From positions 1 through 24,688 of IMG/VR virus record IMGVR_UViG_3300048839_000498: 24,688 bases of DNA; one strand, given 5' to 3'. Shown in pieces: positions 1,974-24,688 of this stretch; position 1 is the first letter of the stretch; each line of letters opens with the position of its first letter. The notes beneath the pieces are model-generated. The model saw only the letters and a program-made list of their open reading frames with translations, ran no database searches and was not told where the DNA came from. The position numbers and the translations under genes are program-made. The stretch is from a virus. Taxonomy: Duplodnaviria > Caudoviricetes.

Positions 1974-2005
1974 AACCGGGCCGCCACCGTAGCAGCGGCC
2001 CAGTC
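1974..2005 (-). terminator. Stable RNA hairpin with C(UACG)G tetraloop after the capsid/decoration genes (weak terminator or mRNA stabiliser)
   Basis: Minus strand GACTGGGCCGCTGC-TACG-GTGGCGGCCCGGTT forms a 14 bp stem including G-U pairs; no long U tract. Confidence 0.55.
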
Positions 2006-2015
2006 ATCGCGTAGA

Positions 2016-2423: not shown

Positions 2424-2436
2424 GTTACGGCGCTCC

Positions 2437-3042: not shown

Positions 3043-3052
3043 AGTCGCCCCC

Positions 3053-4033
3053 TTACGCTACAAGCGTGGCAAACGGGAACCGAGTCGCTTCGGTCTCGTT
3101 CATGCGGTTAATCGGATTCGGAAGCGCGAAGCCGAGGCGCATCACGGCGCGCAACGCAACCATGTCCTGCTGCGCGAGGTTGTAAATGATGTTGCCGCTT
3201 CCGTCCTGAATCACGGCCTGATCCAAGACCTTGTATGTCATGTCCTGGCGCATCGCGTAAACGAGGTGCCGCCACATGCCCGCGATAAGCAGGCTAGAAG
3301 CCGCAACGATGCTACCATTCAGCGGGTACAGAATCGGCGCACCGTCAAGCGTGCCGGTCGCAAACGAGTTGCCTACCTGCTGGCCGGGATGAAAAATCGG
3401 CTGACCGTCCGCAGTGCGCGTGTTGCGCAGCTTGCCACGCATCGAAGTGTGCGCAATGTGGCCGCTAGCGATGAAGCCGTCGGCTTCGAGCGCCATCAAC
3501 ACGCCTGCGGTGCCGCCGGTGGTCTCGCCCAGGAGGGCTTCGTACATGTCGGAATAGTTGGCAAGCGAAAGGTTCTGGCTGGCCGCCGTGGTACCGGCAA
3601 CGAGCCCAGCCGCACCGAGGTTGGTAGTCCAACTTGTCGGAATGTTGGTGCCGTACAGCACCGCCGCGTCGATGGCCTTACCGAACGCCTCGGAAAGCAA
3701 CGGCTTTACCATGCCCCACACGTCAAACGACGTATCGTCAAGCACTGCCTCGGGAATCGGCACGATAACGGCCAGTTCCTCGGCATCGATGTACTTGTTC
3801 GACCAATTGACTTCGGTGGTCTGTTTCTGCGCGATGTCACCGCTCAGGAAATAAGCGGTCGGCAGCGCGGAAACGATGGGGAGCCGCGTCTGCTTCGTGC
3901 TCATGTTCGGCAAGCGCTGGGCGAGCCGCATGACAGCGGACATTTCCGGCGTTGTCTCAATGACCGTCTTCGCCGCATCCTCGGGGATGAGGGCTTGCGC
4001 ATCGCTGCGCGAAATCACGTTATTATATGCCAT
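3053..4033 (-). CDS. Major capsid protein (HK97 fold)
   Basis: 326 aa; ALIPE, AEELAVIVPIPEAVLDD and NLAQQDMVALRAVMRLGF motifs; follows the scaffold gene. Confidence 0.93.
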   Translation of the reverse strand: MAYNNVISRSDAQALIPEDAAKTVIETTPEMSAVMRLAQRLPNMSTKQTRLPIVSALPTAYFLSGDIAQKQTTEVNWSNKYIDAEELAVIVPIPEAVLDDTSFDVWGMVKPLLSEAFGKAIDAAVLYGTNIPTSWTTNLGAAGLVAGTTAASQNLSLANYSDMYEALLGETTGGTAGVLMALEADGFIASGHIAHTSMRGKLRNTRTADGQPIFHPGQQVGNSFATGTLDGAPILYPLNGSIVAASSLLIAGMWRHLVYAMRQDMTYKVLDQAVIQDGSGNIIYNLAQQDMVALRAVMRLGFALPNPINRMNETEATRFPFATLVA

Positions 4034-4038
4034 GCTAG

Positions 4039-4521
4039 TTATCCTCTACCGGCGGCGGCGCGGATAAACGCATTCATGTCGCCGGTCGTGTTTGCGGCCC
4101 CCGCGCCAGCGCCAGCATTGGCGGTGGCCGTAGTGCCGAAAAATTCAGGGTTTTCCTTGCGAAACTTGTCGATATCCAACCGGCCCTTGTTGTCGATGTA
4201 CCCGCCGCCCGTGGCGACAAGGTATGCAGCCCGCGCGTTGCGGATACCGGCGGTGCTGGCTTGCTCCAAGAAATCGGCTTTGCGCTCAGCCTCAGCCGCA
4301 CGCGTTGCCGCGTCGGCCAGCTTCGTTTCGGCGTCCTTGGTTTTGTCCGCGATAGCCGCGTCAAGATCGGCCTTCCACGCTTTCTGCGCGGCGCTCACGC
4401 GGCGGTCGGCCTCGCGTTGCAGGTCGGCTTCGGTGAAAGTCTTTGGGGTCGCGCCCGCGTCCGCCCCGGATTTATCCGTTGCTTCGGCGTTCGTTTCGCC
4501 CTTGTCCTGTTCGTCTGCCAT
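4039..4521 (-). CDS. Capsid scaffolding protein (DUF4355/SPP1 gp11-like)
   Basis: Acidic N-terminus, KTFTEADLQREADRRV, coiled coil, C-terminal DMNAFIRAAAG. Confidence 0.85.
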   Translation of the reverse strand: MADEQDKGETNAEATDKSGADAGATPKTFTEADLQREADRRVSAAQKAWKADLDAAIADKTKDAETKLADAATRAAEAERKADFLEQASTAGIRNARAAYLVATGGGYIDNKGRLDIDKFRKENPEFFGTTATANAGAGAGAANTTGDMNAFIRAAAGRG

Positions 4522-4529
4522 AAAAGAAA

Positions 4530-4585
4530 AATCTCCGTAGGCATTAACCCCGGCGTCGTGCCGAGCGGTGTAGCCTACGGAGATT
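4530..4585 (-). promoter_or_regulatory. 13 bp inverted repeat sequestering the scaffold RBS
   Basis: aatctccgtaggc (4530-4542) and gcctacggagatt (4573-4585) are perfect reverse complements; the GGAG SD lies in the 3' arm of the mRNA stem. Confidence 0.75.
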
Positions 4586-4611
4586 CTATAGCGGTTTTTG
4601 GTAGCTTGCTA
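4583..4611 (-). promoter_or_regulatory. Putative internal promoter for scaffold/capsid genes
   Basis: TAGCAA (4606-4611), 17 bp spacer, TAGAAT (4583-4588) on the minus strand; weak -35. Confidence 0.45.
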
Positions 4612-4622
4612 TATCTGGAGTT

Positions 4623-4913
4623 TTACGCGTGCAAATTGCTAGATATAGCTTTTTCGAGTAGCTTCATTGCATCCCTAACGACGGGGATGTGCCGCGCCGG
4701 AGGCTGGAGCCACCCAATAGCCTTGCCTACCGTCTGGCGGAGGTCCGCATTCTCGAACGGCGCTTCGCAGTCCGCGCGCTCGTATGATTCGTAGGAGGCA
4801 AACTTAGCAGCGCATTTCTTGCACTGCCTGTACCGGCGCGTGGTTTCGCCGTCCGGTTCGTGAACCGTATTCGTTACGCGCGTGTGTTCGTTTCCGCACT
4901 CTGGGCACTTCAT
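4623..4913 (-). CDS. C4 zinc-ribbon protein (NrdR N-terminal / Ogr-Delta-like), putative transcriptional regulator
   Basis: MKCPECG...TRVTNT...RRYRQCKKCAAKFASYE; no recognisable ATP-cone. Confidence 0.75.
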   Translation of the reverse strand: MKCPECGNEHTRVTNTVHEPDGETTRRYRQCKKCAAKFASYESYERADCEAPFENADLRQTVGKAIGWLQPPARHIPVVRDAMKLLEKAISSNLHA

Positions 4914-5692
4914 CCGTCGATAGCCTCCGTTAGTTCCTTCGCCGCAGCCGTGGCCGCAGCACGTTTCTCCGCGCGTTCCCGCGCACCGGCCAGTACTTCT
5001 TCGTGGTAGATATACGACACGCTACACCGGCAGCGCGGATGCTGAGGCGGCTCGCTGGCACCGCTGGTAAACGACTGCTTTACTGGTATCGGTCCCTGCG
5101 CCTCGTTGGCCTGACACTCATCGCTTACGCGGTTGTCGCCGGTCGTCTGCCAGATCTTCCACTTCGCGCCCGCCGCTTTTGCCGCCTCGGCATCGCCTTG
5201 GCTAACGGCTTTCGCCGTCTCCGTGCGCGCGATTACTTCGCGCCGCTCCTTCAGTAGTTGCTCGCGTAGCTTGTCTATTTCGGCCTGCGACGGTGGCGGG
5301 TCGCTGTCTATGAATTTCTGTAACTGTTTCGCGCGCACGCTGTCGAGGTTGTTCACGGCCTTCAGGTCGCGCGCGATAGCCGTTGGGTGCTTGCCGTCCT
5401 TCAGTCCCTGCGCGATGGTCTCGCCGATGTTTTTCAGTTCGGACTCGATAAACGAATTTTGTAACGATGTCGCCGCCGTCTCCGCAAGCGCGCGCGCGTT
5501 GTCGAGAATTTCTTGACTCACTTCGCCGCGAAACTGAGCCACCAACGTATCATAATACGTTTCAACCAGCGCACGCCGTACCACCTCGGATTCAGCAAAC
5601 AGGTAAGCCGCGAGTTCAGCCGCCTCGCGACTCGGCAGGCCTTGTTCAACCATGAGCTCCAGTAGCTGTTCCTCTGTCAGCGGCGCATTCAT
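4910..5692 (-). CDS. Minor head morphogenesis protein (SPP1 gp7 / Mu gpF family)
   Basis: IARTETAKA, KIWQTTGDNRVSDEC and PPQHPRCRCS motifs. Confidence 0.9.
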   Translation of the reverse strand: MNAPLTEEQLLELMVEQGLPSREAAELAAYLFAESEVVRRALVETYYDTLVAQFRGEVSQEILDNARALAETAATSLQNSFIESELKNIGETIAQGLKDGKHPTAIARDLKAVNNLDSVRAKQLQKFIDSDPPPSQAEIDKLREQLLKERREVIARTETAKAVSQGDAEAAKAAGAKWKIWQTTGDNRVSDECQANEAQGPIPVKQSFTSGASEPPQHPRCRCSVSYIYHEEVLAGARERAEKRAAATAAAKELTEAIDG

Positions 5693-7152
5693 GTCACGCT
5701 GGCCCGCATCCGGTCCAGCGCACCGCTGGCAACGAGCCGGTTGACGAGTTCGACGTTGGCCGCCTCAAGCGCGGTCAATAGCGCGGCCTGTATCGCGTTG
5801 CTTTGCCGTTCCACCGTCGCCCGTTGTACCGCCGCTTGTTCGTCTACGCTACCCTGCGGCCCCGGCGTCGCGGGCTGTGCCTGTCCGGCTGTCGGCTTCG
5901 GTGCAACAGCCATCATCGCGCGCGCGTCTTCCATAAGCTGGTTTAGTTGGTCTTCCGTCCAGCCTTCATCGCGGAGGATATTCAAGATCGGGATACCGGC
6001 CTGCGTGTTGGTGAGGCGCGTGGTAGCTTGGCTCTGTGGCTGTACGGTGTGCGGTTCCTGCCAAATACACTCAATGTCTTCCGGGTCCACCGTCTGGCCC
6101 TGAATCATGAGGCAAAACGCCATGGCCCGCTGCCACTCTTCGCCCAATATACCTTGGTATAGTTCGATCTTCGCGATCAGCGGCGCCTCCATCGCCTGCA
6201 ACGCTTCGCCGCTCGCGTTCGCACCTTGCCCGGTGAAGTAGTGCTTGGGCGTTGCGCTCAACACCGCCATCGCGTCCGCCATGGAATCTATCGGCTCCAG
6301 ATAATTGCCGGGGTCACCAACGGGGAACGCGCCCACACCGCTAGGCTGATCGCCCGCTTCCGCTGCGGGAATCTTCAACAACGTACCCGGCCCCACGGGT
6401 AGCCCGCCTGCCTGTTCGTCCCAATGGCCGATGCCCCAGCGCTGCGGGAAACTGGTGAATTCGGACGATACCATCATATCGTTGAGCAGCTTATTCATCG
6501 CGTCTTGCAGGGACAAAACGCCCGCTGTGAGTTCGCCGGTACAGACGCGGCGGCCCGTGCGGAAATGAAATACCGGAATCACGCCGTAGGGGTTTAGCTC
6601 AGACGATTGCAGCGTGTACGCGCTCGCGTTCATCGGCTCGTTTTTCGATTCGTAATGTTCGATGGTGCCGGGGTAGTACAGGTTCAGGTAGTAGGTTTTA
6701 TTCGACACCCAGCGCTTACAGGCCACGCGCGGCACGTCGGGATATTCATCTTCGTAGATGACGTGCGCCTGTCGCGGGTCGTGGTAGTACGCGACGGGCT
6801 TCCCTGTCGGCCCCTGCCACGCGACAAGGTACGATTCGCCCGTGGATAGCGCGGCGGTGTGCAGGTCGTTGGCCGCCCGGTGCAATACGCGCTTCCATAT
6901 ATCTTCCATCGTTTCGATAGTCGCGTCATCGTCCGCGTTCCACGCCTGCACCTTGAGTCGGTTTCGGCTGGCGTCAACGATAACCTGGCACCAGTTCTTC
7001 TTAAACACAACGCCGTTCGGCACAACCTGATTCATCTTCGGGTTGATAAACGCAATCGGGTGCTGCCCGTCGTAATAGCGCCAGCGCAGCGAGTGCGCTA
7101 TCTGCTTCGCGGCCATCGCGTCGTAGCACAGTTTCAGGTCGTTTTCTATCAT
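5689..7152 (-). CDS. Portal protein (SPP1 gp6-like)
   Basis: RYYDGQHP, KNWCQVIVDA, NPYGVIPVFHF, SFPQRW and ASGEAL motifs; ATG at 7150-7152 overlaps the terL stop. Confidence 0.92.
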   Translation of the reverse strand: MIENDLKLCYDAMAAKQIAHSLRWRYYDGQHPIAFINPKMNQVVPNGVVFKKNWCQVIVDASRNRLKVQAWNADDDATIETMEDIWKRVLHRAANDLHTAALSTGESYLVAWQGPTGKPVAYYHDPRQAHVIYEDEYPDVPRVACKRWVSNKTYYLNLYYPGTIEHYESKNEPMNASAYTLQSSELNPYGVIPVFHFRTGRRVCTGELTAGVLSLQDAMNKLLNDMMVSSEFTSFPQRWGIGHWDEQAGGLPVGPGTLLKIPAAEAGDQPSGVGAFPVGDPGNYLEPIDSMADAMAVLSATPKHYFTGQGANASGEALQAMEAPLIAKIELYQGILGEEWQRAMAFCLMIQGQTVDPEDIECIWQEPHTVQPQSQATTRLTNTQAGIPILNILRDEGWTEDQLNQLMEDARAMMAVAPKPTAGQAQPATPGPQGSVDEQAAVQRATVERQSNAIQAALLTALEAANVELVNRLVASGALDRMRASVT

Positions 7153-8429
7153 GAAGCCGTCGCCTCTTTGTTTCCGCGCCGTAGTAGCGACGCGCCAAGC
7201 CATACGAACGCGTCAAGCCGGTTCGGCGATTCGCCGCGCTCCGGCGTCCAGCCGCATAGTTCGTCTTCAAGTTTTACAAACTCACCGACGAACTTGATTT
7301 TGTTCTGTTCCGTCAACGCGGCGATGGGTTGCGCGCGCGGCACCTTGCCCCGCGAAGCCCATACTTTTTGCATAGGCACGTTAGCATCAACCGTGCGCAA
7401 GACGTGCCGCACCATTTCGCCGCCTTGATTGGCCTCATAAATAATTTTGTCCGCCTTGTGCCGGTGATACGCCCGCACGGTCGCGCGACCCCACGCGTCT
7501 GGGCTTCCCTGTAGCGTGTCATCGGCAATCACGTACATAAGTCCGTTGCTTCCCTTGCCGCCCGTCACGATTCCCGCCTCATCGCCGCCGGGCGTGGCTG
7601 AGGGGTCGAGCGCTACGTGCATCCGCACGATTTCGACGCCTTCCGGCACACGTAGAACGCGGTTCCTATCTATCCACTCGCGCCGCCAGAGCGCGCCAGG
7701 GTCATCAACCTGCCAGAGTCCCTCGCGTAGCTGTTTCCGTGTTGCGGGGTCGAGCTTAGATAGCGCTTCCTCATATTCCGCCTGCCCGATGTGCGGATTG
7801 TCTTCAAGCCGGGCCGAAATGAATGCCGCCGTCGCGGTCGCGGGGTCGATAAACCTGCGATGCACCCAAGCGTGCCCGATGCCGCCGGGATTCGTCGCGG
7901 CCCGCATCCGCACCGGCACCGTAGCGGCCACCAAGCGCCGCAGGCGGCTGAAGAGGTAGGTATATTGCTGTTCGGTGAACTGCGTAAGTTCGTCGAAGCC
8001 TACGAACTGGAATTCTGAACCCTGATAGCGGTATTTGTCGTTGTCGCTATCGAGGTAGCCGAACGTGAGGCTAGCGCCGCTGGGGAATACGAACGACTTT
8101 TCCGAAGCCACCCATCGGGCATCGGTCCCCATGAGCCACTGCTTTGCACGGTCCATGATGGCGCCCGGCATCGCGAGGTCGGGGAACGTCCGGCGTAACA
8201 GCAGGGCGCGGTAGTCCGGCACATGGACGAACTGGAGCGCGGCCATAATCATAGCGTCGGATTTGCCGCCGCCCGCCGCACCGCCGTAGAGTAGTTCGGC
8301 CTCATCAATGTGCGCGAGGAATTCAGCCTGCTTCGTGGTCGGCAAGTGCGGGATGTAGCGGTTGCTCAGGACGGTGTGTCCGAACGTCGCGAATGTCGAG
8401 GCAAGGCTAGCCACGAGTAGAAACAGCAC
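7149..8429 (-). CDS. terL: Terminase large subunit
   Basis: Walker A GGAAGGGKS, Walker B FVGFDE, ATNPGG, nuclease motifs ALDPS/DEAGIV/SPNRLDA; start uncertain. Confidence 0.95.
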   Translation of the reverse strand: MLFLLVASLASTFATFGHTVLSNRYIPHLPTTKQAEFLAHIDEAELLYGGAAGGGKSDAMIMAALQFVHVPDYRALLLRRTFPDLAMPGAIMDRAKQWLMGTDARWVASEKSFVFPSGASLTFGYLDSDNDKYRYQGSEFQFVGFDELTQFTEQQYTYLFSRLRRLVAATVPVRMRAATNPGGIGHAWVHRRFIDPATATAAFISARLEDNPHIGQAEYEEALSKLDPATRKQLREGLWQVDDPGALWRREWIDRNRVLRVPEGVEIVRMHVALDPSATPGGDEAGIVTGGKGSNGLMYVIADDTLQGSPDAWGRATVRAYHRHKADKIIYEANQGGEMVRHVLRTVDANVPMQKVWASRGKVPRAQPIAALTEQNKIKFVGEFVKLEDELCGWTPERGESPNRLDAFVWLGASLLRRGNKEATAS

Positions 8430-8826
8430 GCTGTATAGCCTCCATGTAGGTGGCTACGGCTTCGTCGGCTGAGATAGCGGGCTGGTACGGCTGTGTGCCG
8501 TCCGGGGTAGTGGGAGCGATCTTCGTCGCGCCGTCCCAGCCTTTGAGCTTGGCGAGCCTATCAGCGGCCTTGATGGAGTCCGCATCCGAACCGCCCAGCA
8601 TAATTTGCGTCATACGCTCGCACGTCTGTTCGTAAGTCGCGATGCTCGCGGACTGGACAGACGCGCGGAGTCTGGATAGCTCATCTATGATGTTAACGTT
8701 CGCTAACAACCGGGAAGCTTGCTCATTCGCTGTTCGTGGGGAGTAACCCGCCCGCGTGGCTGCTTGTGTCCCGTTCGAGTCCTTGAGGTACTCGCGGACG
8801 AACGCGGCCTGTTTCGGTGTGAGCAT
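8407..8826 (-). CDS. terS: Terminase small subunit
   Basis: LTPKQAAFVREYLKDSNGTQAATRAGYSPRTANEQASRLL signature. Confidence 0.95.
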   Translation of the reverse strand: MLTPKQAAFVREYLKDSNGTQAATRAGYSPRTANEQASRLLANVNIIDELSRLRASVQSASIATYEQTCERMTQIMLGGSDADSIKAADRLAKLKGWDGATKIAPTTPDGTQPYQPAISADEAVATYMEAIQRAVSTRG

Positions 8827-8954
8827 TAGACGGTGGCCAGTGCTGCGGCGGCCACGAGGGCGAGCGCGCCGAACACGGTTATCAGGCAGCCTGCGCCCAT
8901 GACGCCGCAGCCGACGGCGGTGATAGCGTGGCCGGGGTTCTGGTTGTTGTTCAT
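8826..8954 (-). CDS. Small 42 aa membrane peptide (not in ORF track)
   Basis: MNNNQNPGHAITAVGCGVMGAGCLITVFGALALVAAAALATV; GAGG RBS; TAA overlaps the terS ATG. Confidence 0.65.
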   Translation of the reverse strand: MNNNQNPGHAITAVGCGVMGAGCLITVFGALALVAAAALATV

Positions 8955-8984
8955 GATTGAAACCTCACACGTTTTGTACTTCTT

Positions 8985-9012
8985 AGTATAGCACATCTGG
9001 CGGCTGAGGCAA
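8985..9012 (-). promoter_or_regulatory. Putative sigma70-type promoter of the packaging/head operon
   Basis: TTGCCT (9007-9012), 16 bp spacer, TATACT (8985-8990) with TGn extended -10. Confidence 0.55.
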
Positions 9013-9020
9013 GGGCGCGG

Positions 9021-9455
9021 TTAGGCGTCCAGGAATTGGATGCCCGTGTAATAACGTTTACGGACTCCGTTTTTGCTTTCTCTGTAGTCGTATAATTCTG
9101 GAAAATAGTTTCTGATGGCCATACCAAATACCGCAATTGTTACAGGCCGGACACCTTTGTCCTTCGCCCATTCGGTGTAGGCTTTGTAAAGTTCGCTGCG
9201 CAAAATCATACCTTCGGAATCGATAGTGCATCGTTCTTTAAAAAAGTCGAAGGTGTCGATTTTTGTAACAACTCGATTCTGTGCCAAATATTTGTCGATA
9301 TCTTCAATAGCATATCGGATGCTTTTTTCCCCGATGATAAGGTATGGAAGATTCTGAATTGTTCCTGAGCTTTTCGATTTTCGCCGCCTTGATGCGAGGG
9401 TTTGTTTCGACAATCCCAAGATGTTTGCGGCCTCTTCTTCGGTTACTAACTGCAT
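9021..9455 (-). CDS. Excisionase/AlpA-like HTH fused to a primase C-terminal (D5/P4-type) winged-helix domain
   Basis: N-terminal LVTEEEAANILGLSKQTLASRR...IRYAIEDIDKYL; C-terminal half aligns by eye with the last ~73 aa of the neighbouring primase; AAGGAGG RBS; AT-rich. Confidence 0.8.
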   Translation of the reverse strand: MQLVTEEEAANILGLSKQTLASRRRKSKSSGTIQNLPYLIIGEKSIRYAIEDIDKYLAQNRVVTKIDTFDFFKERCTIDSEGMILRSELYKAYTEWAKDKGVRPVTIAVFGMAIRNYFPELYDYRESKNGVRKRYYTGIQFLDA

Positions 9456-9481
9456 AAAAAAAACCTCCTTTAGTTGAGGTA

Positions 9482-9511
9482 ATTATACATGGACTATGTG
9501 GACGTTGTCAA
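9482..9511 (-). promoter_or_regulatory. Consensus sigma70 promoter of the HTH-wHTH gene
   Basis: TTGACA (9506-9511), 18 bp spacer, TATAAT (9482-9487). Confidence 0.85.
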
Positions 9512-9757
9512 AAACAAAAGGGTCCACGTTGTCCATGCTATCCCTATATCTATCTTATATAGCGTATTACGCTTTTTATAAGTTATAGAAAAAGGTCTGT
9601 ACGAACATGGACCCTTGGACACAGCCTTTATTTATAGGGGTTTTCTGCATGTTCGGGGTCCAAGCAAAACTGGCGTTAGCGCAGACGCCGAAAACCGAAC
9701 TACGAAAAATAAGAAACCCGCCGCGCGGTTGCGGCGGGGGTCCAAGTAGGGGGTCCA
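9489..9757. repeat. Putative replication origin: GTCCA/TGGAC iteron-like repeats around an AT-rich core
   Basis: TGGAC at 9490, 9499, 9608, 9616; GTCCA at 9522, 9531, 9658, 9740, 9753; AT-rich 9541-9595 with palindrome agcgta-t-tacgct (9561-9573); directly downstream of the primase-helicase gene. Confidence 0.65.
9705..9738 (-). terminator. Intrinsic terminator after the primase gene
   Basis: Minus strand CCCGCCGC-AACCGC-GCGGCGGG followed by TTTCTTATTTTT. Confidence 0.7.
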
Positions 9758-9770
9758 TGCTGATAACCGG

Positions 9771-12053
9771 CTACTCCAGCTTGATCCCGGTGTAATACCG
9801 CGTCCGCGCGCCGTAGTTTTTGGCCCGGTAATCGTCAATTTCGGCGCAGGCCGCGCGCAGTTGCTGGCCGAATTTTGCCTTTCCGTATGGGCGTGTGAGC
9901 CCCTCGTCGGTGGCCCATTCGAGATAAGCGGCATAGAGCGCGTCGCGCGCCACGGTGGCCTGCGGGTCGAGCGTGCAGCGGTCTTCAATAAACGCGGTAA
10001 TCGGTGCCGACACTGCGCGGAACCCGGCAAGGATAGCGCGTGACTCGGCTGGTTCAGTAAACCGCCCTTGGGTGGTGAGCCGTTGCAGGCCGTCCAGCGC
10101 CCAGTTAAGGATGCCGGGTAGTTCCCGCCGTATTTTGGACTCCAGGAAGCGGTCCTCGCGCCCGAGGTGTGATTGGGTGGTTTGCAGCATGAGCAGGCGG
10201 CCCAAAAGCGCGCCCGAGGCGTCTGTGAGGTTCGGCAGTTCGTTCGATACCATCTGAATTTTGAGGGGGATGTGGCCCGTCCAGTCCGGCTTATAGAGCC
10301 GCCGGACGGTTTGTTTATCGCCGCCCGACAGGGATAGCAGGCGTTCCACGATGGAGGCTTGATCGTTCCTCCGTCCCAGCCGCGCGTCGGCGATTATGGC
10401 GAGGCGCATGTCTATGAGCACTTGCCCGCCGCGCGCGTCCCCGAGGCTGCCGAGGGTGGGGTTGCAGGTGCTGTCCGGCCCCATGAGTGCTTCGAGGGTG
10501 CGCGATATGACACCTTTGCCTGAGCGCTGCGGTCCTATTATCCAGAGCATTTTGTGGTGTGACATATCGCGTGACAGGCAATAGCCGAACCACTCGCCTA
10601 GAAGGAGGGCGCAGTCTGCGCCGCTGTCACCCGGCCACGTGCGGGTGAGGAAGTCCACCCACGTTTCCGGGCTGTCCGCGTCCGGCGAATAGGCGAACGG
10701 CAGTGTTGAGGTTACGAAGAGCGCCGGGGTGTGCGGGATAAACTCGCGGCTGCTGTCGAGCCGTAGCAGGCCGTTGCGCACGGAGATCCATTCCGAGGCG
10801 GAGGGGCGCGGTGTGCCGTCCATCCAGAACGGTGCTTCCTGCCGGGCGGGTAGCATGCAGAGGCCGCGTAGCTGTGACATAACGTCGCGTAGTAGGCCGT
10901 CCTTCAGGATGCAGCGGACTGTTTTAAGTTTATCCGAGTCGTTGTAGTAGTGCCAGCGTGACAGGGTTTCCGAGAGTTGCCGGTGTAGGGCTTCCACGTC
11001 CAGCACGCGGTAGTGTGTGCGGTCGTAGATGTACCAGTCGCCGCGCCAGTAGCGGAGGGTCCTCCCAGGGTGCGTTTCTGAATTGAATTTTTCTGCGAGG
11101 TCGCGGGGCGACGGCGTCACCACGTAGTTCGGCTGGTCCGGGTCACCCGTTGAGTTGCTTGCCCCGCGCGGCGGCACGTCCGTCGGTATCTGCGGTGGTC
11201 CCGCGGTGCCGGTGCGCGGCGCGTCACGCCCGGCGCGTGGCGGTGGCACCGGCACCGGTTTCTGTCGCCCTGCGGTAATACCGGATTTCAGGGTAGCATG
11301 TGACTCGCGTTCCGGCAGGCCAGCGGCCACGGCGGCGGGTAGCAGCGCGTTAATGATTTCGCCGTCCGTGAGTTCGGTTAGGCGTGCGAGGGAGTAGGCT
11401 TCGCGGTTCAGCGTGGCGTTGCGTTCGCCTTCGGGCGCGGTGGTAACGGTTGCAGCCGCCCGTTGCAAGGCGGCGGCTACGTAGCCAGAACCCGGCGTGG
11501 TTGCAGGTAGCGGTAGCTGTGGCGCGGCGGTGTTGAGTTTGGCGGGCGGCGTGTTGATGGCGTCGATCACCCACTGCGGGAGGTCGGCCAGTTCGATTTC
11601 ATCTGGGGCGCGTCCCGGCATCCACTCATAGAGTGCGCCGGTATCAGCGTGAACGCTGCCCGGCGCCACGACTTGCCCGCCCTCGCCCCGCGTGTCGGTA
11701 GAGGCGTGGATATGCCGCGCGGTGTTGCCTACTCTCATCTTGGGCGTGCCCGGCGGCACGCGGTAGTACAGATGCACCCCGCCTCCGCCGGTTTGTGCCG
11801 TGATGGTAGGCGGCAGTCCCGGTGGCGCATCGCCGTCGCAGTCTACTACGAGCAGGCCGTTGCCGGTGCGGATGCCGATGTTCCCGTCGGCGTCGAGCCA
11901 TGCTTGGGCTTCATCGGCGGTGATGCCGGGCCGTTTTTGCCAGTCGCGCGCGATGGGCCGCTTGCCGGGTGATGGTCCTTTGTCTGCCGGGCCGGACAGT
12001 TTAATAAGCGGCCACCCGAACCGGATGGCCGCCTGAATCGCGTCGGTGGTCAT
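9771..12053 (-). CDS. Bifunctional primase-polymerase fused to a D5/P4-family SF3 helicase
   Basis: Prim-pol motifs NIGIRTG, LVVDCD, TGGGGVHLYY and DTRGEGGQVVAPGSVH; PriCT-like GERNATLN; Walker A GPQRSGKG; MVSNELP; C-terminal wHTH. Confidence 0.92.
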   Translation of the reverse strand: MTTDAIQAAIRFGWPLIKLSGPADKGPSPGKRPIARDWQKRPGITADEAQAWLDADGNIGIRTGNGLLVVDCDGDAPPGLPPTITAQTGGGGVHLYYRVPPGTPKMRVGNTARHIHASTDTRGEGGQVVAPGSVHADTGALYEWMPGRAPDEIELADLPQWVIDAINTPPAKLNTAAPQLPLPATTPGSGYVAAALQRAAATVTTAPEGERNATLNREAYSLARLTELTDGEIINALLPAAVAAGLPERESHATLKSGITAGRQKPVPVPPPRAGRDAPRTGTAGPPQIPTDVPPRGASNSTGDPDQPNYVVTPSPRDLAEKFNSETHPGRTLRYWRGDWYIYDRTHYRVLDVEALHRQLSETLSRWHYYNDSDKLKTVRCILKDGLLRDVMSQLRGLCMLPARQEAPFWMDGTPRPSASEWISVRNGLLRLDSSREFIPHTPALFVTSTLPFAYSPDADSPETWVDFLTRTWPGDSGADCALLLGEWFGYCLSRDMSHHKMLWIIGPQRSGKGVISRTLEALMGPDSTCNPTLGSLGDARGGQVLIDMRLAIIADARLGRRNDQASIVERLLSLSGGDKQTVRRLYKPDWTGHIPLKIQMVSNELPNLTDASGALLGRLLMLQTTQSHLGREDRFLESKIRRELPGILNWALDGLQRLTTQGRFTEPAESRAILAGFRAVSAPITAFIEDRCTLDPQATVARDALYAAYLEWATDEGLTRPYGKAKFGQQLRAACAEIDDYRAKNYGARTRYYTGIKLE

Positions 12054-13198
12054 GCAAAGAGTTCCTGTTGTGCTGGTGCGTTGATACGGTGTGTAGCGAT
12101 CTCGAAATAGCCGGGGTCGCGCTCAATGCCGATAAATGAAAGGTCAAGGATCTGGCACGCCCTGCCGGTTGAGCCTGAACCCATAAATGGGTCCAGTACT
12201 GTTCCGCCGGGCGGCGTCACGAGTCGGCACAGATACACCATAAGGTCGGTCGGCTTCACGGTCGGGTGGTGGTTGCGATTGTTGGCTAGATCTTGATTTG
12301 GCTGTCCGCCTATACCGTTTCCCATTGTTTGGCGCGCTTTTTCCTCTAACCCGTGGCATCCTGTGTCCCTGTCCAGCTTGCTCGCTTTTGGCGTGTAGAA
12401 GTAGCGCGCTGCGTCGCCCATGCCTTGGGTGGCTTCGTCGCTGCCGTCGTGTATCAGGTTCGCGGGCCAGCGGCTAGATAATGAGTTCGGGCCATGAAAA
12501 GTTTCGCCTGATGTACTTCGGCCTGCGTTTTTATGACCAAGACATTTTCCATTTTCGTCGCGATTATTACACTGTGTTCCACCTCCAGAACTTCCAACCC
12601 TGCTCGCGTCGATATTCAGCGCGCCGGTACAGTGCTGAAGTACGTTGGTCGCGACGGTGCCGGGAAACGGCTTGCGTGCCAACGTTATCGGCTCCACGGC
12701 GGGCTTCAGCGCGGTTCCCCAGCCTTGCCATTGCTGCGCTGCTGGGGTGGCTGGAGTGGTGAGTGCACCATTCCCAAAGCTGTTAGGCCCACGATTATTA
12801 AAGGTTCCGCTTTTGAAATTGACGGGTGGCAGAGTGGCTTCCTGTAACACTTCCCGCTCCGCTCCCGCCGCCTTGTCAATCGCTTTCGACACGTCTAGCG
12901 ACTTCGGGAAGCCAGAACCATACACCCACATAATCATGTCGCGGATCTCGAAGCCCGCGTCTTCAATCCGGCACGCCATGCGGTGCTGCGTCCGCGTGCC
13001 AGCGAAGGCCAGCAAGTGCCCGCCCGGCTTCAACACGCGCAGGCACTCAGCCCACACTTCTACGCTGGGCACGTCGTAATCCCATTTCTTCCCCATGAAC
13101 GCGAGGCCATACGGCGGGTCTGTTACTACGGCGTCAACACTTGAATTTGGAAAAGTCTTCAGAACATCGAGGCAGTCCCCGAGTCGCAGATCTATCAC
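12050..13198 (-). CDS. DNA N6-adenine/N4-cytosine methyltransferase (beta class)
   Basis: VTDPPY near the N-terminus; HPTVKP and VLDPFMGSGST near the C-terminus; GTG start at 13196-13198 overlapping the upstream stop. Confidence 0.93.
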   Translation of the reverse strand: MIDLRLGDCLDVLKTFPNSSVDAVVTDPPYGLAFMGKKWDYDVPSVEVWAECLRVLKPGGHLLAFAGTRTQHRMACRIEDAGFEIRDMIMWVYGSGFPKSLDVSKAIDKAAGAEREVLQEATLPPVNFKSGTFNNRGPNSFGNGALTTPATPAAQQWQGWGTALKPAVEPITLARKPFPGTVATNVLQHCTGALNIDASRVGSSGGGTQCNNRDENGKCLGHKNAGRSTSGETFHGPNSLSSRWPANLIHDGSDEATQGMGDAARYFYTPKASKLDRDTGCHGLEEKARQTMGNGIGGQPNQDLANNRNHHPTVKPTDLMVYLCRLVTPPGGTVLDPFMGSGSTGRACQILDLSFIGIERDPGYFEIATHRINAPAQQELFA

Positions 13199-13458
13199 TG
13201 CCCGCCTCCGTTCGCGCGGCGCTGCGCTTCGGCGGCGTCGATAGCCAGCACGCCGCGCAGCGCGACGTTGGCGGTGTCCATGAGTTCTTGCCGGACGCGC
13301 CACGACTCGTTGCGCCGGATGGCCTCGATAACTTCATAGTACTCTTCGGTGAGCGCGCCCAGCACGGCCATGCTGTTGTCGAGCGCGCCGTGCTTGGTGT
13401 GCGCGCGGTTGATGAGGAAATTGAGATCGTCGATGATGCGCGGGGTGAGGGCGTTCAT
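13195..13458 (-). CDS. MazG-like nucleotide pyrophosphohydrolase domain protein
   Basis: LTEEYYEVIEAI...VRQELMDTANVAL matches the ExxE...ExxD all-alpha NTP-PPase pattern. Confidence 0.65.
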   Translation of the reverse strand: MNALTPRIIDDLNFLINRAHTKHGALDNSMAVLGALTEEYYEVIEAIRRNESWRVRQELMDTANVALRGVLAIDAAEAQRRANGGGQ

Positions 13459-13799
13459 TCCGACACCCCCACACTACGGCTGTACGTGGCGCAGCGCGCG
13501 CCGTGCGAGCCGGTTAGTGCTTCGTCACGTATCGGCACATAGACGGCGTCCCCGGCCTCCGCAAGGCTCGCGGCCCGGCGCGTTACACTGGGCGTTGGTG
13601 TGCCGAGATACTGGCGCAGTTCTCTGGGTGTCTTGAAATATAGCGGGCCTAGCTGTTCCTCGCGCCAGCCGCTGCCACGTTCTTGACGGCGAGCGCGTGC
13701 TTTGACGTTTGCGGATGCGGCGGCGCAGTCGCGGGAACAATACCGTTGCCGGCCACACGCGGGCTGAAACGGGTTGTTGCAGTGCTTGCAGAGTTTCAT
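13455..13799 (-). CDS. Hypothetical protein with N-terminal zinc finger
   Basis: CKHCNNPFQP...QRYCSRDC; ATGA overlaps at both ends. Confidence 0.65.
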   Translation of the reverse strand: MKLCKHCNNPFQPACGRQRYCSRDCAAASANVKARARRQERGSGWREEQLGPLYFKTPRELRQYLGTPTPSVTRRAASLAEAGDAVYVPIRDEALTGSHGARCATYSRSVGVSE

Positions 13800-14032
13800 G
13801 ATTCAAACGCCCTCATGAGTTTAGGTATCGCTTCTAAGCATGCCTTCCGCGTCTTGCGGTGCGCGCAGATAGTCGCATCATCGTGGAAAATGTCGAGCAT
13901 CCAGCCGGTGACAGCGCCGTCGTACGTGCGGTGCTTGTAGACTTCGATATAGACGCCGTCGCGGTCCAGCGAGTATGAATCCGTGATGTATTCGTCGCGC
14001 GCGAAGTCGCGGATGGTTAGGTCCCAGTTCAT
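13796..14032 (-). CDS. Hypothetical protein (78 aa)
   Basis: MNWDLTIRDFARDEY...; ATG at 14030-14032 overlapping the upstream stop, GGAG RBS. Confidence 0.6.
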   Translation of the reverse strand: MNWDLTIRDFARDEYITDSYSLDRDGVYIEVYKHRTYDGAVTGWMLDIFHDDATICAHRKTRKACLEAIPKLMRAFES

Positions 14033-14244
14033 GGCTTCTCCTCCGCGTGCCGGTGCGCGGCCCGCTTGGCGTCGGCGAGGCGGCGCGGCTCTGTGTATTT
14101 TGGCGTGACGAGTATGTTGCCGACACAAACAACCCAGCCGCCAGGAAAGAATCCAGCGGTACGTTTGTATATAGTACAGGTGTGCCCGTTTATCACTTTG
14201 AAGTATTCGCCATCTTCGCGCTTCCATCCCGTCGTGTCGCTCAT
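14029..14244 (-). CDS. Hypothetical protein (71 aa)
   Basis: ATGA overlaps at both ends; purine-rich RBS. Confidence 0.6.
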   Translation of the reverse strand: MSDTTGWKREDGEYFKVINGHTCTIYKRTAGFFPGGWVVCVGNILVTPKYTEPRRLADAKRAAHRHAEEKP

Positions 14245-15062
14245 GTCTTCCCCTCCGTGATGGCCTTAGCGCGGGTGTGGAGGCACTTTAATACACTCCA
14301 CTTTTCGAGTTCTTCGGACCACTCATTGAAATCGGCGAGCTTGTCCCTCATGGGTTTTTCATCCGGCTCCAGCAGCGCGAGCACTTCGTCCAGCCTGCGG
14401 CGGAGGTCGGCGGCCTCATCCATCAAGTCATCCCGCTCGCTGGTTACTTCATCAAGCTCGGAGCACAGCGCGGAAATATCAACCGGCGCGCCGTCCATGT
14501 TCATATACCGAGCCATGGCATTATGCGCCTCGGTGACGTTCGCGGCTTTAACCCGGTTCTCTTCGGCTGTGTGCCTCGCGTTATCCCGCTGCCTGATCGC
14601 CTCTGTGATGGCACGCTCGCGGGCTTCCAGGACAGCCTTCACGCGGGCGAGTTCTTCATCGCTGCGATCAAGGTCCGCAAGCACCTGCTCGTAAGCCGTC
14701 GCGACATCGGCGTGCGCGGCGTTGGCGGCGGCGAGTTCAACCTCTAGCACATTCACGCGCTTTTCAGCCTCCGCGCGGCCTTCGGACACTATTTCGTCGC
14801 GCCTGTTGGCCTTGGCGAGTTCGGCGCGGAGGTCCTCTATATCCATTGCTTGTTGCGCCAGCTCGGGAACTTCCGCCATTATTCGTGATCTTTCGTTAGC
14901 GAGCTTACCTTCCAGTTCCGCGATGCGCGCCTCGTAGGCGTCGCAGTCGGCGTTGAGTTTGCGCCGAAGCGAGTCCGCCTCTTTGTGGCTTTGTAGCCGG
15001 TATTCATCGCCATCGGAGTTGCACAGGATGGCGGAGTACGTGTCTTTCAATCCCCAGTTCAT
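14241..15062 (-). CDS. Coiled-coil hypothetical protein
   Basis: 273 aa with heptad repeats (EARIAELEGKLA, LRAELAKA). Confidence 0.7.
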   Translation of the reverse strand: MNWGLKDTYSAILCNSDGDEYRLQSHKEADSLRRKLNADCDAYEARIAELEGKLANERSRIMAEVPELAQQAMDIEDLRAELAKANRRDEIVSEGRAEAEKRVNVLEVELAAANAAHADVATAYEQVLADLDRSDEELARVKAVLEARERAITEAIRQRDNARHTAEENRVKAANVTEAHNAMARYMNMDGAPVDISALCSELDEVTSERDDLMDEAADLRRRLDEVLALLEPDEKPMRDKLADFNEWSEELEKWSVLKCLHTRAKAITEGKT

Positions 15063-15063
15063 A

Positions 15064-15183
15064 TCATCGTCCTCTCTTCGGTTTGCGCACAGCGGCGCGG
15101 CTGAGTCTGTTGGTTCGCTGGTGCCTGTTGTTGTCCTGGATGGCGTGCCACAGGCGGCGCAGGAAGGCGGCGAGGCAGGTCAT
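15064..15183 (-). CDS. Small basic hypothetical protein (39 aa, not in ORF track)
   Basis: MTCLAAFLRRLWHAIQDNNRHQRTNRLSRAAVRKPKRGR; fills the gap with an ATGA overlap. Confidence 0.45.
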   Translation of the reverse strand: MTCLAAFLRRLWHAIQDNNRHQRTNRLSRAAVRKPKRGR

Positions 15184-15383
15184 GGGCGGGTAATTTCACA
15201 GAGTTCGTCGAGTGACACGTAAAGCGCACGCGCAATTTTGATTAAGTTCTTCACAGATGGCACACGCCTTCCACGCTCGAAATGGTTGATAGCGGCAGGT
15301 TGAAGCCCACAGGCTTTTGCAAGATCGCTCTGCGTCATCCCTTGCCGCTCCCGCTCTTCTCGAATATTATTGGCGATGCTCAT
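15180..15383 (-). CDS. XRE-family helix-turn-helix regulator
   Basis: MSIANNIREERERQGMTQSDLAKACGLQPAAINHFERGRRVPSVKNLIKIARALYVSLDEL; GGAGGT RBS before the ATG at 15381-15383. Confidence 0.9.
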   Translation of the reverse strand: MSIANNIREERERQGMTQSDLAKACGLQPAAINHFERGRRVPSVKNLIKIARALYVSLDELCEITRP

Positions 15384-15825
15384 AGATCCACACCTCCACG
15401 TCGCAGTCCAGCCCGCCCAAGTGCTTCTCGTACAGCGGCCAGACGTCGGTCCAGTCCAGCCCGCCGCAGCCGCAGCCGAGTTGTGGGATGGCGATGGATG
15501 TAATATCGCGGACGGCAAATTCTGAGGCTAATTCAAACAGGCAAGAATTCACCCATTCAACTTTTGACGGATCGCGCCAATGTTTTTTGGTAGCGGCCAA
15601 AATAACGTACCTCTCATGGGCGCACCAGTGGCGTGTTTCGCCCGGATCTATTTTGCTCACGCCTACTGATCGGCATAAGCTCGCGTACCACTCGAACATT
15701 CCCGGCCATCGCCGCTTAAACTCCAGCGCTAGCCCCTTGCCCATGACGCCGACGCAGTTCACGGGGCAGACGAGGACCTGGGCGGTGCTGTCGAAGATGC
15801 TGCCGTGTTTAAGAGTGATGGGCAT
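15367..15825 (-). CDS. Macrodomain protein, DarG/TARG1-like ADP-ribosyl glycohydrolase
   Basis: VNCVGVMGKGLALEFK, ATKKHWRDPS and SIAIPQLGCGCGGLDW motifs. Confidence 0.88.
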   Translation of the reverse strand: MPITLKHGSIFDSTAQVLVCPVNCVGVMGKGLALEFKRRWPGMFEWYASLCRSVGVSKIDPGETRHWCAHERYVILAATKKHWRDPSKVEWVNSCLFELASEFAVRDITSIAIPQLGCGCGGLDWTDVWPLYEKHLGGLDCDVEVWIYEHRQ

Positions 15826-16030
15826 CGGTAACTTCCTTCATAGTTATGTGCCATTTCTTTCCGGTTTCGCGGCATGTTATTGTCTGCTCGTATCCTCCCC
15901 ACATATCAATGGCGGCACGGTAGAATTCTTGGGTTTTATCCTCCCAATCCAGAAACGAAGTTCCAGCTTTATTGACTCGGCCTACTTGAATGCGCTCAGT
16001 GAGTGACGACATCTGAAGTCCGTATTTCAT
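15809..16030 (-). CDS. Hypothetical protein (73 aa)
   Basis: Overlap-coupled ORF in the accessory gene run. Confidence 0.6.
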   Translation of the reverse strand: MKYGLQMSSLTERIQVGRVNKAGTSFLDWEDKTQEFYRAAIDMWGGYEQTITCRETGKKWHITMKEVTDAHHS

Positions 16031-16395
16031 CCCTCACCCCTCCATAGCGCCGCCGTAGCGTGCGCGAGTTTCTGGCACTCCGCGAGCGTCGGGCGGGTGG
16101 CGCAGTAGAGTGCGCCGAACGTTCTAAGTTCGTAGCACTCTTCACACTCACGACACTCAAATTGGTGTTTGCCTATGACCTTCGAGTGGCATTTATAGTC
16201 CCTTACCCACCCCTCCAACTCCGGGTCCGCTTCCGGCTCCAGCGCGGCCAGCGCGGCGCGCAGTATTTCTATGCGGCGGTTCTGGCAGGCAACACCCTCC
16301 ATCTCCCACCGGCACCTGTATTGGTCCGGCGGATACTCTAGGTTGTAGTACGCGCGCGCGGCACGCTCGATCTGTTCGTCGGTGTAGGTGGTCAT
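16027..16395 (-). CDS. Hypothetical protein (122 aa)
   Basis: MTTYTDEQIERAARAYY...; ATGA overlaps. Confidence 0.65.
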   Translation of the reverse strand: MTTYTDEQIERAARAYYNLEYPPDQYRCRWEMEGVACQNRRIEILRAALAALEPEADPELEGWVRDYKCHSKVIGKHQFECRECEECYELRTFGALYCATRPTLAECQKLAHATAALWRGEG

Positions 16396-16733
16396 AACGT
16401 GGCCTCCGCCAGCGGCACGAGGCGGACAGGCTGGATAAGGGTTTCGTCATTGATGTGGTTGTAAAAACGATCTGGTCCAAGTGAAAGAATGGTATCCATG
16501 TCCTTTATGTGCAGTGAACCATTGGTAATGAATAGCAGGTCGTTCCCGTCCATCTGGAATGCCTGCACCTTGCCCCCGTCCGGCACGGCCACCAGCACGG
16601 TAGCGGCGGCGAGGCGGTCGGCCCAGGTTCTGATTTTTTGAGCCGCATCCGGTCCTTCGTACATCGGCCCGTAGGTCAAGTTATCTTCTAAAAAGTCTGC
16701 TGTTTCTCGCATCTCTTCGATGATGTTGCTCAT
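16392..16733 (-). CDS. Hypothetical protein (113 aa)
   Basis: Overlap-coupled ORF. Confidence 0.6.
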   Translation of the reverse strand: MSNIIEEMRETADFLEDNLTYGPMYEGPDAAQKIRTWADRLAAATVLVAVPDGGKVQAFQMDGNDLLFITNGSLHIKDMDTILSLGPDRFYNHINDETLIQPVRLVPLAEATL

Positions 16734-17200
16734 TCTTCCGGTGCTCCTGTCTCTGGTTCATCAAACGGGCTGCGGTCTAGGGCGTCAAGTATCTGCGCCG
16801 TGGTGTAGCGCAGCTTGAGGCTGTCGATGCCATACTGTAGCGACTTCGGCACCGTCGTCGGCGTGCTCGGCGGAGGGTCTGCGGGTGCGGTGCCTGGGTA
16901 GTAGATCCAGCGACGCGGGCGCTGTCGGTTTGGCTTACCTACTGTATCTCCAGCCATCAGAGACCAGGTCCCATTAGGCTCCAGCCGGAACGTGCGGTAC
17001 TGGTCTATGTTGATCTCCGCGATTACTGGGCGGCCTACTTCGGGCAGGTCTGTTCGCCAGTCAGTGCCCACAGCCGCGCGGGCACGGGCGAGCGCGTGAA
17101 CGTGCTGTTCCCAGAGGCAAAAGTGGCCCTCTGGGTGCGGCTGTGCGCCGAACGTGAGTCGGTCTGGCGTGTCGGGCATGTATGGGGTTGCGTCGGTCAT
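16730..17200 (-). CDS. Hypothetical protein with DUF551-like segment
   Basis: WRTDLPEVGRPVIAEI...RRWIYYP pattern. Confidence 0.55.
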   Translation of the reverse strand: MTDATPYMPDTPDRLTFGAQPHPEGHFCLWEQHVHALARARAAVGTDWRTDLPEVGRPVIAEINIDQYRTFRLEPNGTWSLMAGDTVGKPNRQRPRRWIYYPGTAPADPPPSTPTTVPKSLQYGIDSLKLRYTTAQILDALDRSPFDEPETGAPEE

Positions 17201-17523
17201 GGCGTGGGCTCCTGGTAGGGGTTGAGTTCGGCAAAGGCGATAGGAGGATCGTGCTCACAGCAATCAGGATTACCACAGGTCCATTGCCCATCTTTCAGCC
17301 GGGTTAGTACGATGAGGTTATACGCGCAGCCTGTTGGTGTCCATTGCCAGCATAGTAGAGGTACTCCCTTCGGCGCATTCTCCACGTCCGTGCGCCACGG
17401 CCCGGCGGCGCAGGCGGCGAGTTGGGACTCAAGATCGTCTATCATATCTATGACATCCGAAATTGTGGCATAGGGCAAGTCTGCCGCACGGCTATTAAGA
17501 TCTGTTATGTCGTCGAAGATCAT
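17197..17523 (-). CDS. Hypothetical protein with DUF551-like segment
   Basis: WRTDVENAPKGVPLLCW...PIAFAEL pattern. Confidence 0.55.
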   Translation of the reverse strand: MIFDDITDLNSRAADLPYATISDVIDMIDDLESQLAACAAGPWRTDVENAPKGVPLLCWQWTPTGCAYNLIVLTRLKDGQWTCGNPDCCEHDPPIAFAELNPYQEPTP

Positions 17524-17798
17524 CCCAACAGCTCATCTATCGCCGCGTCCCGCTCCGCGAGCGCGGCGTTACGGTTGCGCAGGCTGGCAATGGCGACCCC
17601 ATGCGCACCAACAGACACGCTCTGCATGGTTTCTCCATCTAATGAACTCAGCCCCGTCACCGCCGCGAGGTACACGGCGTCGTAGTGCGCGCGGAGATCC
17701 TGCACCACAGCCTTACGGCACTCATGGCAGTACTTTATGTTCCACGACGCCGCACTGTGCTCGCGGCCACACATCTTGCATCGGACATCGAATCCCAT
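17520..17798 (-). CDS. Hypothetical zinc-finger protein
   Basis: MGFDVRCKMCG...KYCHECR; AAGGAG RBS. Confidence 0.6.
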   Translation of the reverse strand: MGFDVRCKMCGREHSAASWNIKYCHECRKAVVQDLRAHYDAVYLAAVTGLSSLDGETMQSVSVGAHGVAIASLRNRNAALAERDAAIDELLG

Positions 17799-18067
17799 CA
17801 CTTCTCTCCTTTCGGCACGAAGGCCGGGCAGGCGGGCCATGAGGTATATATCGGAATCCAGTCGTCTTTCGACACAACCCGCCTACACGCAGCCCAGTTG
17901 CATTTATCATGGATGACCGGGCCCCACGCGCACTCGCCACAGGTCTTGCCGTGAAAGGCTGACTCGCGCGCAGACATCGCTGCTACGCTTCGACAGTCCC
18001 AACACAGACCCGTACTGGCATCTACGCCACGATGACCGGCTGGCAACTTGCATCCTGAGCAGATCAT
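17798..18067 (-). CDS. Cys-rich hypothetical protein
   Basis: MICSGC...CWDC...CGECAW...WPACPAF. Confidence 0.55.
   Translation of the reverse strand: MICSGCKLPAGHRGVDASTGLCWDCRSVAAMSARESAFHGKTCGECAWGPVIHDKCNWAACRRVVSKDDWIPIYTSWPACPAFVPKGEK

Positions 18068-24520: not shown

Positions 24521-24688
<168 letters not shown>

Follow-up and report, generated by a model that had tools for sequence, protein, structure and literature searches.

The 24,688-nucleotide stretch analysed here (the window; record IMGVR_UViG_3300048839_000498) belongs to the genome of an uncultured tailed phage, and it carries, beyond a primase-helicase gene and a 315-bp gap, a gene of 144 amino acids (aa), P0001, whose product joins a helix-turn-helix (HTH) domain to a winged helix like the one that ends the primase-helicase. 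Our analysis favours, at slightly better than even odds (about 0.52), the reading that P0001 is an iteron-binding regulator which shuts down the promoter of its own gene and vies with the helicase ring for those repeats of the gap that are distal. Judged from its sequence and setting, P0001 is likely to be a self-limiting regulator that links origin occupancy to transcription; its main output may be the damping of initiation or the control of transcription, which sequence does not tell apart.

P0001 (9021-9455, minus strand) is an intact open reading frame (ORF) with its own promoter and ribosome-binding site (RBS). BLASTP, Pfam and a structure model all place an RFX/Pox_D5 winged helix, a paralogue of the primase tail, at aa 68-141 (9033-9254, minus strand), with Pfam scores above the cut-offs for RFX_DNA_binding (PF02257, aa 68-140, 40.6 bits against 27) and for Pox_D5 (PF03288, aa 69-141, 29.4 bits against 21.4). 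The model, which was built from a four-sequence alignment and has a mean pLDDT of 62 (71-84 over the winged helix and below 50 over aa 30-66), shows three helices and a C-terminal hairpin (H68-75, H86-99, H107-117, E122-128, E131-137), and its best match in the PDB is RFX1 (1dp7, E 2.6e-3, TM 0.72 by target). The winged helix proposed in the first-pass annotation, an earlier reading of this DNA from its letters alone, is thus upheld by both profile and structure. A further fold match, Q6J830, is Pas1 of Actinoplanes phage phiAsp2, a 100-aa protein that resembles a free RFX-type winged helix. The N-terminal domain (aa 4-61; 9273-9446, minus strand) resembles stand-alone proteins of 64-85 aa and is of the HTH_17 or excisionase type (PF12728, E 8e-6), at 26.5 bits just under the cut-off of 27. 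Of the earlier label "excisionase/AlpA-like", the first half therefore survives weakly and the second does not: AlpA (PF05930) is not among the four Pfam families matching P0001 at E<=1, and the NCBIfam excisionase model TIGR01764 did not match P0001 either. No nuclease family and no Bro-N, KilA-N, AntA or pRha N-terminal domain was found in the Pfam and PHROGs scans of P0001. Catalytic primase and ATPase domains were not matched in Pfam, and the primase-helicase model TIGR01613 reached only 18.1 bits, with the tail alone matching, in agreement with the catalytically empty, stand-alone copy that had been described.

The primase-helicase, P0002 (9771-12053, minus strand, 760 aa), consists of Prim-Pol, D5_N, superfamily 3 (SF3) helicase and winged-helix domains (PF09250, PF08706, PF19263 and PF03288; the winged helix lies at about 9777-9998, minus strand, by Pfam). 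It thus has the make-up of the P4-family/D5-like enzymes, a primase domain followed by an SF3 helicase and a C-terminal winged helix, and scores 150.7 bits against TIGR01613 (cut-off 108.7). In BLASTP, aa 71-141 of P0001 align with aa 688-759 of P0002 with 33 of 72 positions identical (46%, E 5e-20), and the earlier manual count of 33 identities over 70 columns was right, since there are 70 aligned codons and 33 identical residues. Nucleotide identity over this region is 0.55 and the same codon is used at 11 of the 33 identical residues, which rules out a recent tandem duplication. By these measures the winged helix of P0001 and the tail of the primase-helicase are old paralogues, so that the "duplicated" domain of the first-pass annotation stands as a paralogue and not as a recent copy; the two genes lie in tandem on the same strand across the putative origin. 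P0001 is also, as had been remarked, much more AT-rich than the primase (GC 0.43 against 0.647; GC at third codon positions, GC3, 0.47 against 0.75), and it has the lowest total GC among the 39 ORFs scored. A remnant in decay, left by a second primase gene or by recombination and with no current function, could have the long branch and AT drift of P0001 and be a singleton in protein collections as P0001 is, but we regard this explanation as very unlikely given the intact ORF, the clean fusion, the perfect promoter and strong RBS, the conservation of core and wing, and the existence of analogous fusions.

For a comparison of specificity, P0001 was set against the best 120 of 3413 primase matches. 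The top-scoring primase among the 120 was its own, at 68.6 bits, with the next at 67.4 and 64.3. Identity to the resident primase is 11 of 19 residues in the wing (median of the set, 6) and 10 of 16 in helix 2 (median 7), each of which ranks first of 120, and the wing contains a tyrosine common to five of the 120 primases; helix 1, with 5 of 15, is ordinary. The ranks of wing and helix 2 agree with the earlier suggestion that the copy is likely to share the DNA specificity of the primase. In PriRep5, the initiator of the Staphylococcus aureus pathogenicity island (SaPI) SaPI5, binding cannot do without either wing strand, and helix 4 merely contributes, according to the available part of the report (bioRxiv 10.64898/2026.10.17.759575). 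As far as an alignment can tell, the wing is retained in P0001, and the lysines that open the helix matching PriRep5 helix 4 are gone. The first rank of helix 2 would also suit a mechanism that dispenses with DNA, in which the free winged helix pairs with the helicase tail, or takes its docking place, and so blocks origin recognition. Yeo et al. (2002) reportedly deal with regulation through the homo- and heterodimerisation of winged-helix proteins, which could be cited for such a mechanism. P4 Cnr, a precedent for it, controls copy number, as stated in the accessible text of PMC8628076. Against protein contact, which we find hardly probable, stand the inclusion of the DNA-reading wing in the conserved part, the second DNA-binding domain of P0001 and the repeats in its promoter. 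A joint structure prediction for P0001 and the region of the helicase tail scored 0.00 and has no weight either way.

The repeats concerned lie in the gap between the two genes (9456-9770), which holds nine copies of GTCCA against 0.75 expected. None of 1000 dinucleotide shuffles of the gap contained any 5-mer nine times, and the other 315-nt windows hold at most three copies of GTCCA. Both orientations occur among the copies, and doublets at 9608-9620 and 9522-9535 converge around an AT-rich core (9538-9607; 70-72% AT in the 40-nt windows from 9541 and 9561). Five repeats, in both orientations, span 9608-9757 (9608-9612, 9616-9620, 9658-9662, 9740-9744 and 9753-9757), and an inverted pair of doublets at 9488-9537 (inverted repeat I6, arms 9488-9503 and 9522-9537) is a candidate operator and distal iteron set. 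In the available parts of two reports, SaPI origins are described as 6-12 short iterons directly downstream of rep, opposed around an AT-rich region and read by the C-terminal winged helix (PMC9371898), and as oppositely oriented iterons of 5-6 nt, the inverted ones 15-17 AT-rich bp apart, with the wing strands of PriRep5 reading the iteron in the major groove (bioRxiv 10.64898/2026.10.17.759575). The gap fits this layout in its nine GTCCA copies, its opposed doublets on both sides of an AT-rich core and its place directly downstream of the primase. By this analogy it is likely to be the replication origin, as the first-pass annotation had supposed, and the nine repeats around the core give that supposition its substance; the gap is not marked in the cumulative GC skew. 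A comparable origin-like gap, in which some ten copies of CTGCAC surround an AT-rich core, follows a primase of the same clade at L006:2177-2680, and it is succeeded by an ORF resembling a homologue of window 13195-13458, in place of a winged-helix copy.

Repeats of the GTCCA/GGACC type also follow several unrelated primases, and at least six GTCCA copies were found in 8 of 131 primase loci, our own included. An exclusion or anti-satellite factor could exploit this likeness, being expressed early from the strong consensus promoter described below, occupying similar iterons of co-infecting phages or satellites and blocking helicase loading there. It would resemble, minus the nuclease, Odn of phage ICP1, in which a nuclease is joined to a domain that mimics origin binding by the RepA of PLE, an element resembling phage-inducible chromosomal islands, according to the accessible text of PMC8263062. 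Such a factor would bind its own origin too, P0001 has no effector domain in Pfam, and the co-variation of copy and primase in Vibrio phage VpaJT_1 (see below) points to a self target; we consider this role distinctly unlikely.

The gene is preceded by a sigma70 promoter, TTGACA-18-TATAAT (9482-9511, minus strand), which matches the consensus at 12 of 12 positions. It is the sole 12/12 site of the seven found in 2000-21900, and in a regex search it was the only site of at least 10/12 in the window and L194. Four of the nine GTCCA copies lie at this promoter, two in the spacer between -35 and -10 and two just upstream of -35, in a 16-nt inverted repeat. Because these four repeats overlap P0001's own promoter, transcriptional autorepression would be its most directly implied activity. 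The RBS, AAAGGAGG (9471-9464), falls within a small hairpin (9463-9480, minus strand) in the fold prediction, with -11.0 kcal/mol on an RNA from 9500 against -1.0 on one from the assumed start at 9475/9476, so that the RBS is predicted to be paired only on read-through RNA and free on RNA from P0001's own promoter. An intrinsic-terminator-like hairpin (9717-9738, minus strand; eight G-C pairs and a T run, -20.4 kcal/mol) follows the primase gene. Further on, a weaker promoter-like site stands ahead of a 42-aa ORF and terS (8985-9012, minus strand; 9/12, with TG before -10), which by itself is at chance level. No terminator-like site was found from the P0001 gene until 7023, and the gaps between genes from P0001 down to terL are 66, -1 and 61 nt, so that transcription from the P0001 promoter could continue through terS and terL. 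These transcription signals of the gap (promoter, terminator and RBS) are additions to the first-pass annotation.

Taken together in the reading we favour, the parts would work as follows. The gap, by its likeness to SaPI origins, would be the origin, and the primase tail would bind GTCCA through its wing; P0001 would keep this specificity, and its HTH would make up for what a winged helix by itself is short of in affinity or cooperativity. The strong promoter would fire early, and P0001 would accumulate, bind the inverted doublets at 9488-9537 and shut its own promoter, the self-repression giving a fixed level of competitor. As origins multiply P0001 would be titrated, and the promoter, able to read into terS and terL, would then report on replication. 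The roles put forward in the first-pass annotation, a copy-number limiter, a replication-to-packaging switch or an incompatibility factor against related phages, are hypothetical.

Free copies of a primase tail also occur in cultured phages of an unrelated clade. Fold matches led to annotated phages, and in one of the five checked, Vibrio phage 1.089.O, the primase tail recurs as a free copy (38%, E 5e-9; NVP1089O_90, AUR86828.1, L184:8290-8634). Matches to this copy occur in 63 Vibrio phage records; in 44 of these, which have such a free tail, they cover most of it. Next to it in these phages, directly before a long AT-rich intergenic region, is another RFX/Pox_D5 winged-helix gene, more distant and of 161 aa (L184:8948-9433). 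A close copy is present in eight of ten Vibrio loci, each time behind a promoter-like site and RBS and with a terminator-like T run just upstream; the phages without one are 13VV501A and 141O35-1. Like P0001, the Vibrio copies are free copies of the phage's own primase tail, placed downstream of the primase behind a terminator, a promoter-like site and an RBS; unlike P0001 they have no HTH, stand about 0.8-4.5 kb from the primase and lie upstream of the presumed origin, and they are annotated as hypothetical only.

In seven of these loci the wing reads K.VVSI.G.K.QG in primase and copy alike. In VpaJT_1 (VpaJT1_23, QAY01952.1, L201:3620-4216, in which two winged-helix-like stretches are apparent) it reads KGPTMI.G.QLQG in both, and the score of this copy is 63.2 bits with the primase of the same phage and 43.1-48.1 with the nine others. 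Both wings have changed together, and co-variation between free copy and resident primase, which the first-pass annotation had named as something to look for, is thus seen in an independent clade. The long AT-rich intergenic region of the same-wing loci, the presumed origin, is rich in GTNAC-based repeats, and in three of the seven the 70 nt that precede the copy contain four GTNAC (about 0.5 expected; one of 87 control windows reaches four). In VpaJT_1 GTNAC is absent from those 70 nt and GTNNAC occurs there three times (none of the 87 controls does so), with five further occurrences of GTNNAC counted in its intergenic region. At that promoter GTNAC is missing from the two loci that lack a close copy. 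Because the Vibrio promoters lie away from the presumed origin, their motifs are the best sign, at the level of sequence, that the free copies share the specificity of the primase and have operators in their own promoters. A wider proposal would be that tailed phages with self-loading primase-helicases have repeatedly freed the origin-reading winged helix as a self-repressing "origin counter", its specificity co-evolving with helicase and iterons, and that in the present phage, where the promoter in the origin heads the terminase and head genes, iteron occupancy gates the switch from replication to packaging; we put this forward as a speculation that is doubtful as a whole.

Relatives of the complete fusion are rare. 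Searches for the whole fusion returned only P0001 itself among 13 homologue candidates, nothing in 50,697 phage records, and in viral contigs only its own genome and three primase tails. A profile search for the fusion added only primase fragments, and the Atlas matches for P0001, all under 0.9, serve as leads only. A search of 1.84 billion representatives yielded 91 proteins, three of which are other fusions of an HTH with a winged helix (P0134 and P0169 with HTH_3, P0206 with HTH_17); all three are singletons without genomic context and were retrieved through their likeness to P0001. P0169 as a query gave HTH-only matches in viral contigs and phages. In trees of 80 columns, which have long branches, the fusions group together next to a 17-member primase clade (supports 91/83 and 85/95), and an origin of the P0001 winged helix in or near this clade is supported. 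P0001 as sister of its own primase was not rejected (p-AU 0.32 and 0.25).

A number of observations weigh against our reading of P0001 as a self-repressing reader of its own iterons. In the best tree P0001 falls with the other HTH fusions (85/95) and not with its own primase. The margin of its own primase over the clade primases is small (68.6 against 67.4 bits), the wing of P0169 matches at 10 of 19 residues, helix 3 (5 of 16) is no better than with 63 of the 120 primases, and the basic residues that open this helix, GKAK, have become TIAV. No pattern relating wing sequence to repeat motif was seen across the 131 loci, and the other GTCCA-rich loci have wings unlike that of P0001 and P0002. 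The repeats at the promoter may be plain origin iterons read by the primase alone, since SaPI origins, in the available account, likewise have inverted iterons 15-17 AT-rich bp apart. Among the Vibrio phages, the remaining four of the seven same-wing loci have GTNAC twice (one locus) or once (three) before the copy; the motifs were picked after inspection, the phages compared are relatives, and the motif has switched only once. The isolated winged helix of pRN1 bound DNA without detectable sequence preference, which its authors blame on missing cooperativity (PMC2777425, available part). If want of cooperativity is the cause there, the added HTH of P0001 could supply it. BldC reportedly binds DNA cooperatively.

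A linkage test points the same way. Each primase tail was searched against its own locus, a per-locus search being run because a profile of the P0001 clade scores the distant Vibrio winged-helix genes weakly and may under-count distant copies. The test covered 170 loci with 153 distinct tails, 119 of them with at least 1 kb downstream, and the loci are mostly distant relatives (30-47%). A second copy of the tail was found in none of the 169 other primase loci, our own genome alone being clear, and L006, the only close-clade locus with DNA, has no copy within the 0.9 kb available. Four double matches in genome loci proved to be primase tails split over two frames and not second copies, and six weak matches (E>=4e-4) in five loci were set aside, the best of them (L054) falling in an unrelated ORF. 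A link between such an HTH fusion and primases in other phages could thus not be shown, the three other fusions having come without genomic context; a free copy that co-varies with its own primase was found in the Vibrio clade. Given its absence from L006 and the other loci, the P0001 gene is accessory. Among the sequencing runs listed for this DNA there was no RNA run, and two DNA runs gave short pieces only, none across the gene; they have no weight either way.

The same absence, together with the low GC of P0001, would fit import, and P0001 could be a domain-shuffled regulator, a moron with its own promoter, that has landed between origin and terS, in a slot of variable content; the winged helix would come from this primase clade and now read other sites, with the specificity perhaps supplied by the HTH. 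The self-contained promoter and RBS behind a terminator, the exchange of the N-terminal domain among the fusions (HTH_3 in two, HTH_17 in P0001 and P0206) and their clustering in both trees all suit an imported regulator. Its weakness is that wing and helix 2 rank first of 120 against the resident primase, that repeats lie inside P0001's own promoter and that the wing co-varies with the primase in the Vibrio clade, so we treat import as an unlikely but serious alternative to the self-repressing regulator.

Nearly all genes of the window are on the minus strand. The replication arm carries an SbcC-like ATPase, SSB, a helicase and methylases before the primase-helicase, and after the latter come the gap, P0001, the 42-aa ORF, terS, terL and head genes. 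The genes terS (8407-8826) and terL (together 7149-8826, minus strand) begin the packaging and head cluster, downstream of the P0001 promoter. A longer record, G001, has the same sequence plus tail genes in 35 kb, with an estimated completeness of 49%; no integrase was found among the ORFs scanned, in a record that is only about half complete. A protein with an NrdR/Ogr-like zinc ribbon, a candidate late regulator, is encoded at 4623-4913 between head-morphogenesis and scaffold-like genes. At 15180-16030 the replication arm has a small cluster of lower GC, in which genes for an XRE HTH and for a macro-domain-like protein (PHROG 335) are joined by an ORF of 73 aa with 46% GC. At 19591-20355 two long ORFs of 254 and 244 aa overlap on the same strand in different frames, one of them cytosine methylase-like. 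The end of the window (about 24560-24688) is rich in G runs and extends about 20 bases beyond the end of G001, and is likely to be an assembly-end artefact.

Outside P4, little is known of how initiation is limited and late genes are timed in phages whose self-loading primase-helicases are of the P4/D5 type. If our reading is true, a free origin-reading domain that recurs, with its operator placed in the promoter of its own gene, would answer this question in a simple and general way, and pairs of wing and repeat would help to decode how this domain family reads DNA. The cultured Vibrio phages make the idea directly testable, since host, phage, variants without a close copy and a natural switch of wing and motif (VpaJT_1) exist. 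A free, HTH-fused paralogue of a primase tail was not found described in a search of the full-text literature, which left most subscription papers outside.

Known systems supply the separate parts. PriRep5 and Rep1 of the SaPIs resemble P0002 in having a Prim-helicase with an SF3 core and an RFX-like tail, an iteron origin directly downstream and a wing that reads the repeat; the available SaPI descriptions contain no second, free tail copy fused to an HTH with its promoter in the distal repeats, as in this phage. P4 alpha ends in the same Pfam domain as P0002 (PF03288/PF02257) and differs in having a DnaG-type primase in place of Prim-Pol (PMC2777425, available part). ICP1 Odn (Gp88), in the accessible text of PMC8263062, is likewise a mimic of an origin-binding domain reused outside the initiator and is iteron-dependent, but it has a nuclease and targets the foreign PLE origin, whereas P0001 lacks a nuclease and is similar to the initiator of its own phage. 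P4 Cnr, a small separate protein that limits copy number (PMC8628076, available part), is the conceptual precedent for the proposed role. P0001 differs from it in being a recognisable paralogue of the initiator's tail, in its second DNA-binding domain, its separate promoter and its place beyond the origin. Cnr acts through protein contact, and its gene lies upstream of alpha in the alpha operon. No Cnr-type family turned up in the general Pfam, PHROGs and NCBIfam scans, in which no comparison with the Cnr sequence was made. In the iteron plasmids, P1 RepA and F RepE repress their own genes through iteron-like sites over the promoter, a negative feedback that in this phage would fall to a separate paralogue without catalytic domains. 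The domain, the type of origin and small copy-number regulators are thus already known, and it is the layout with the operator in the promoter, together with the cultured Vibrio examples, that merits experiment.

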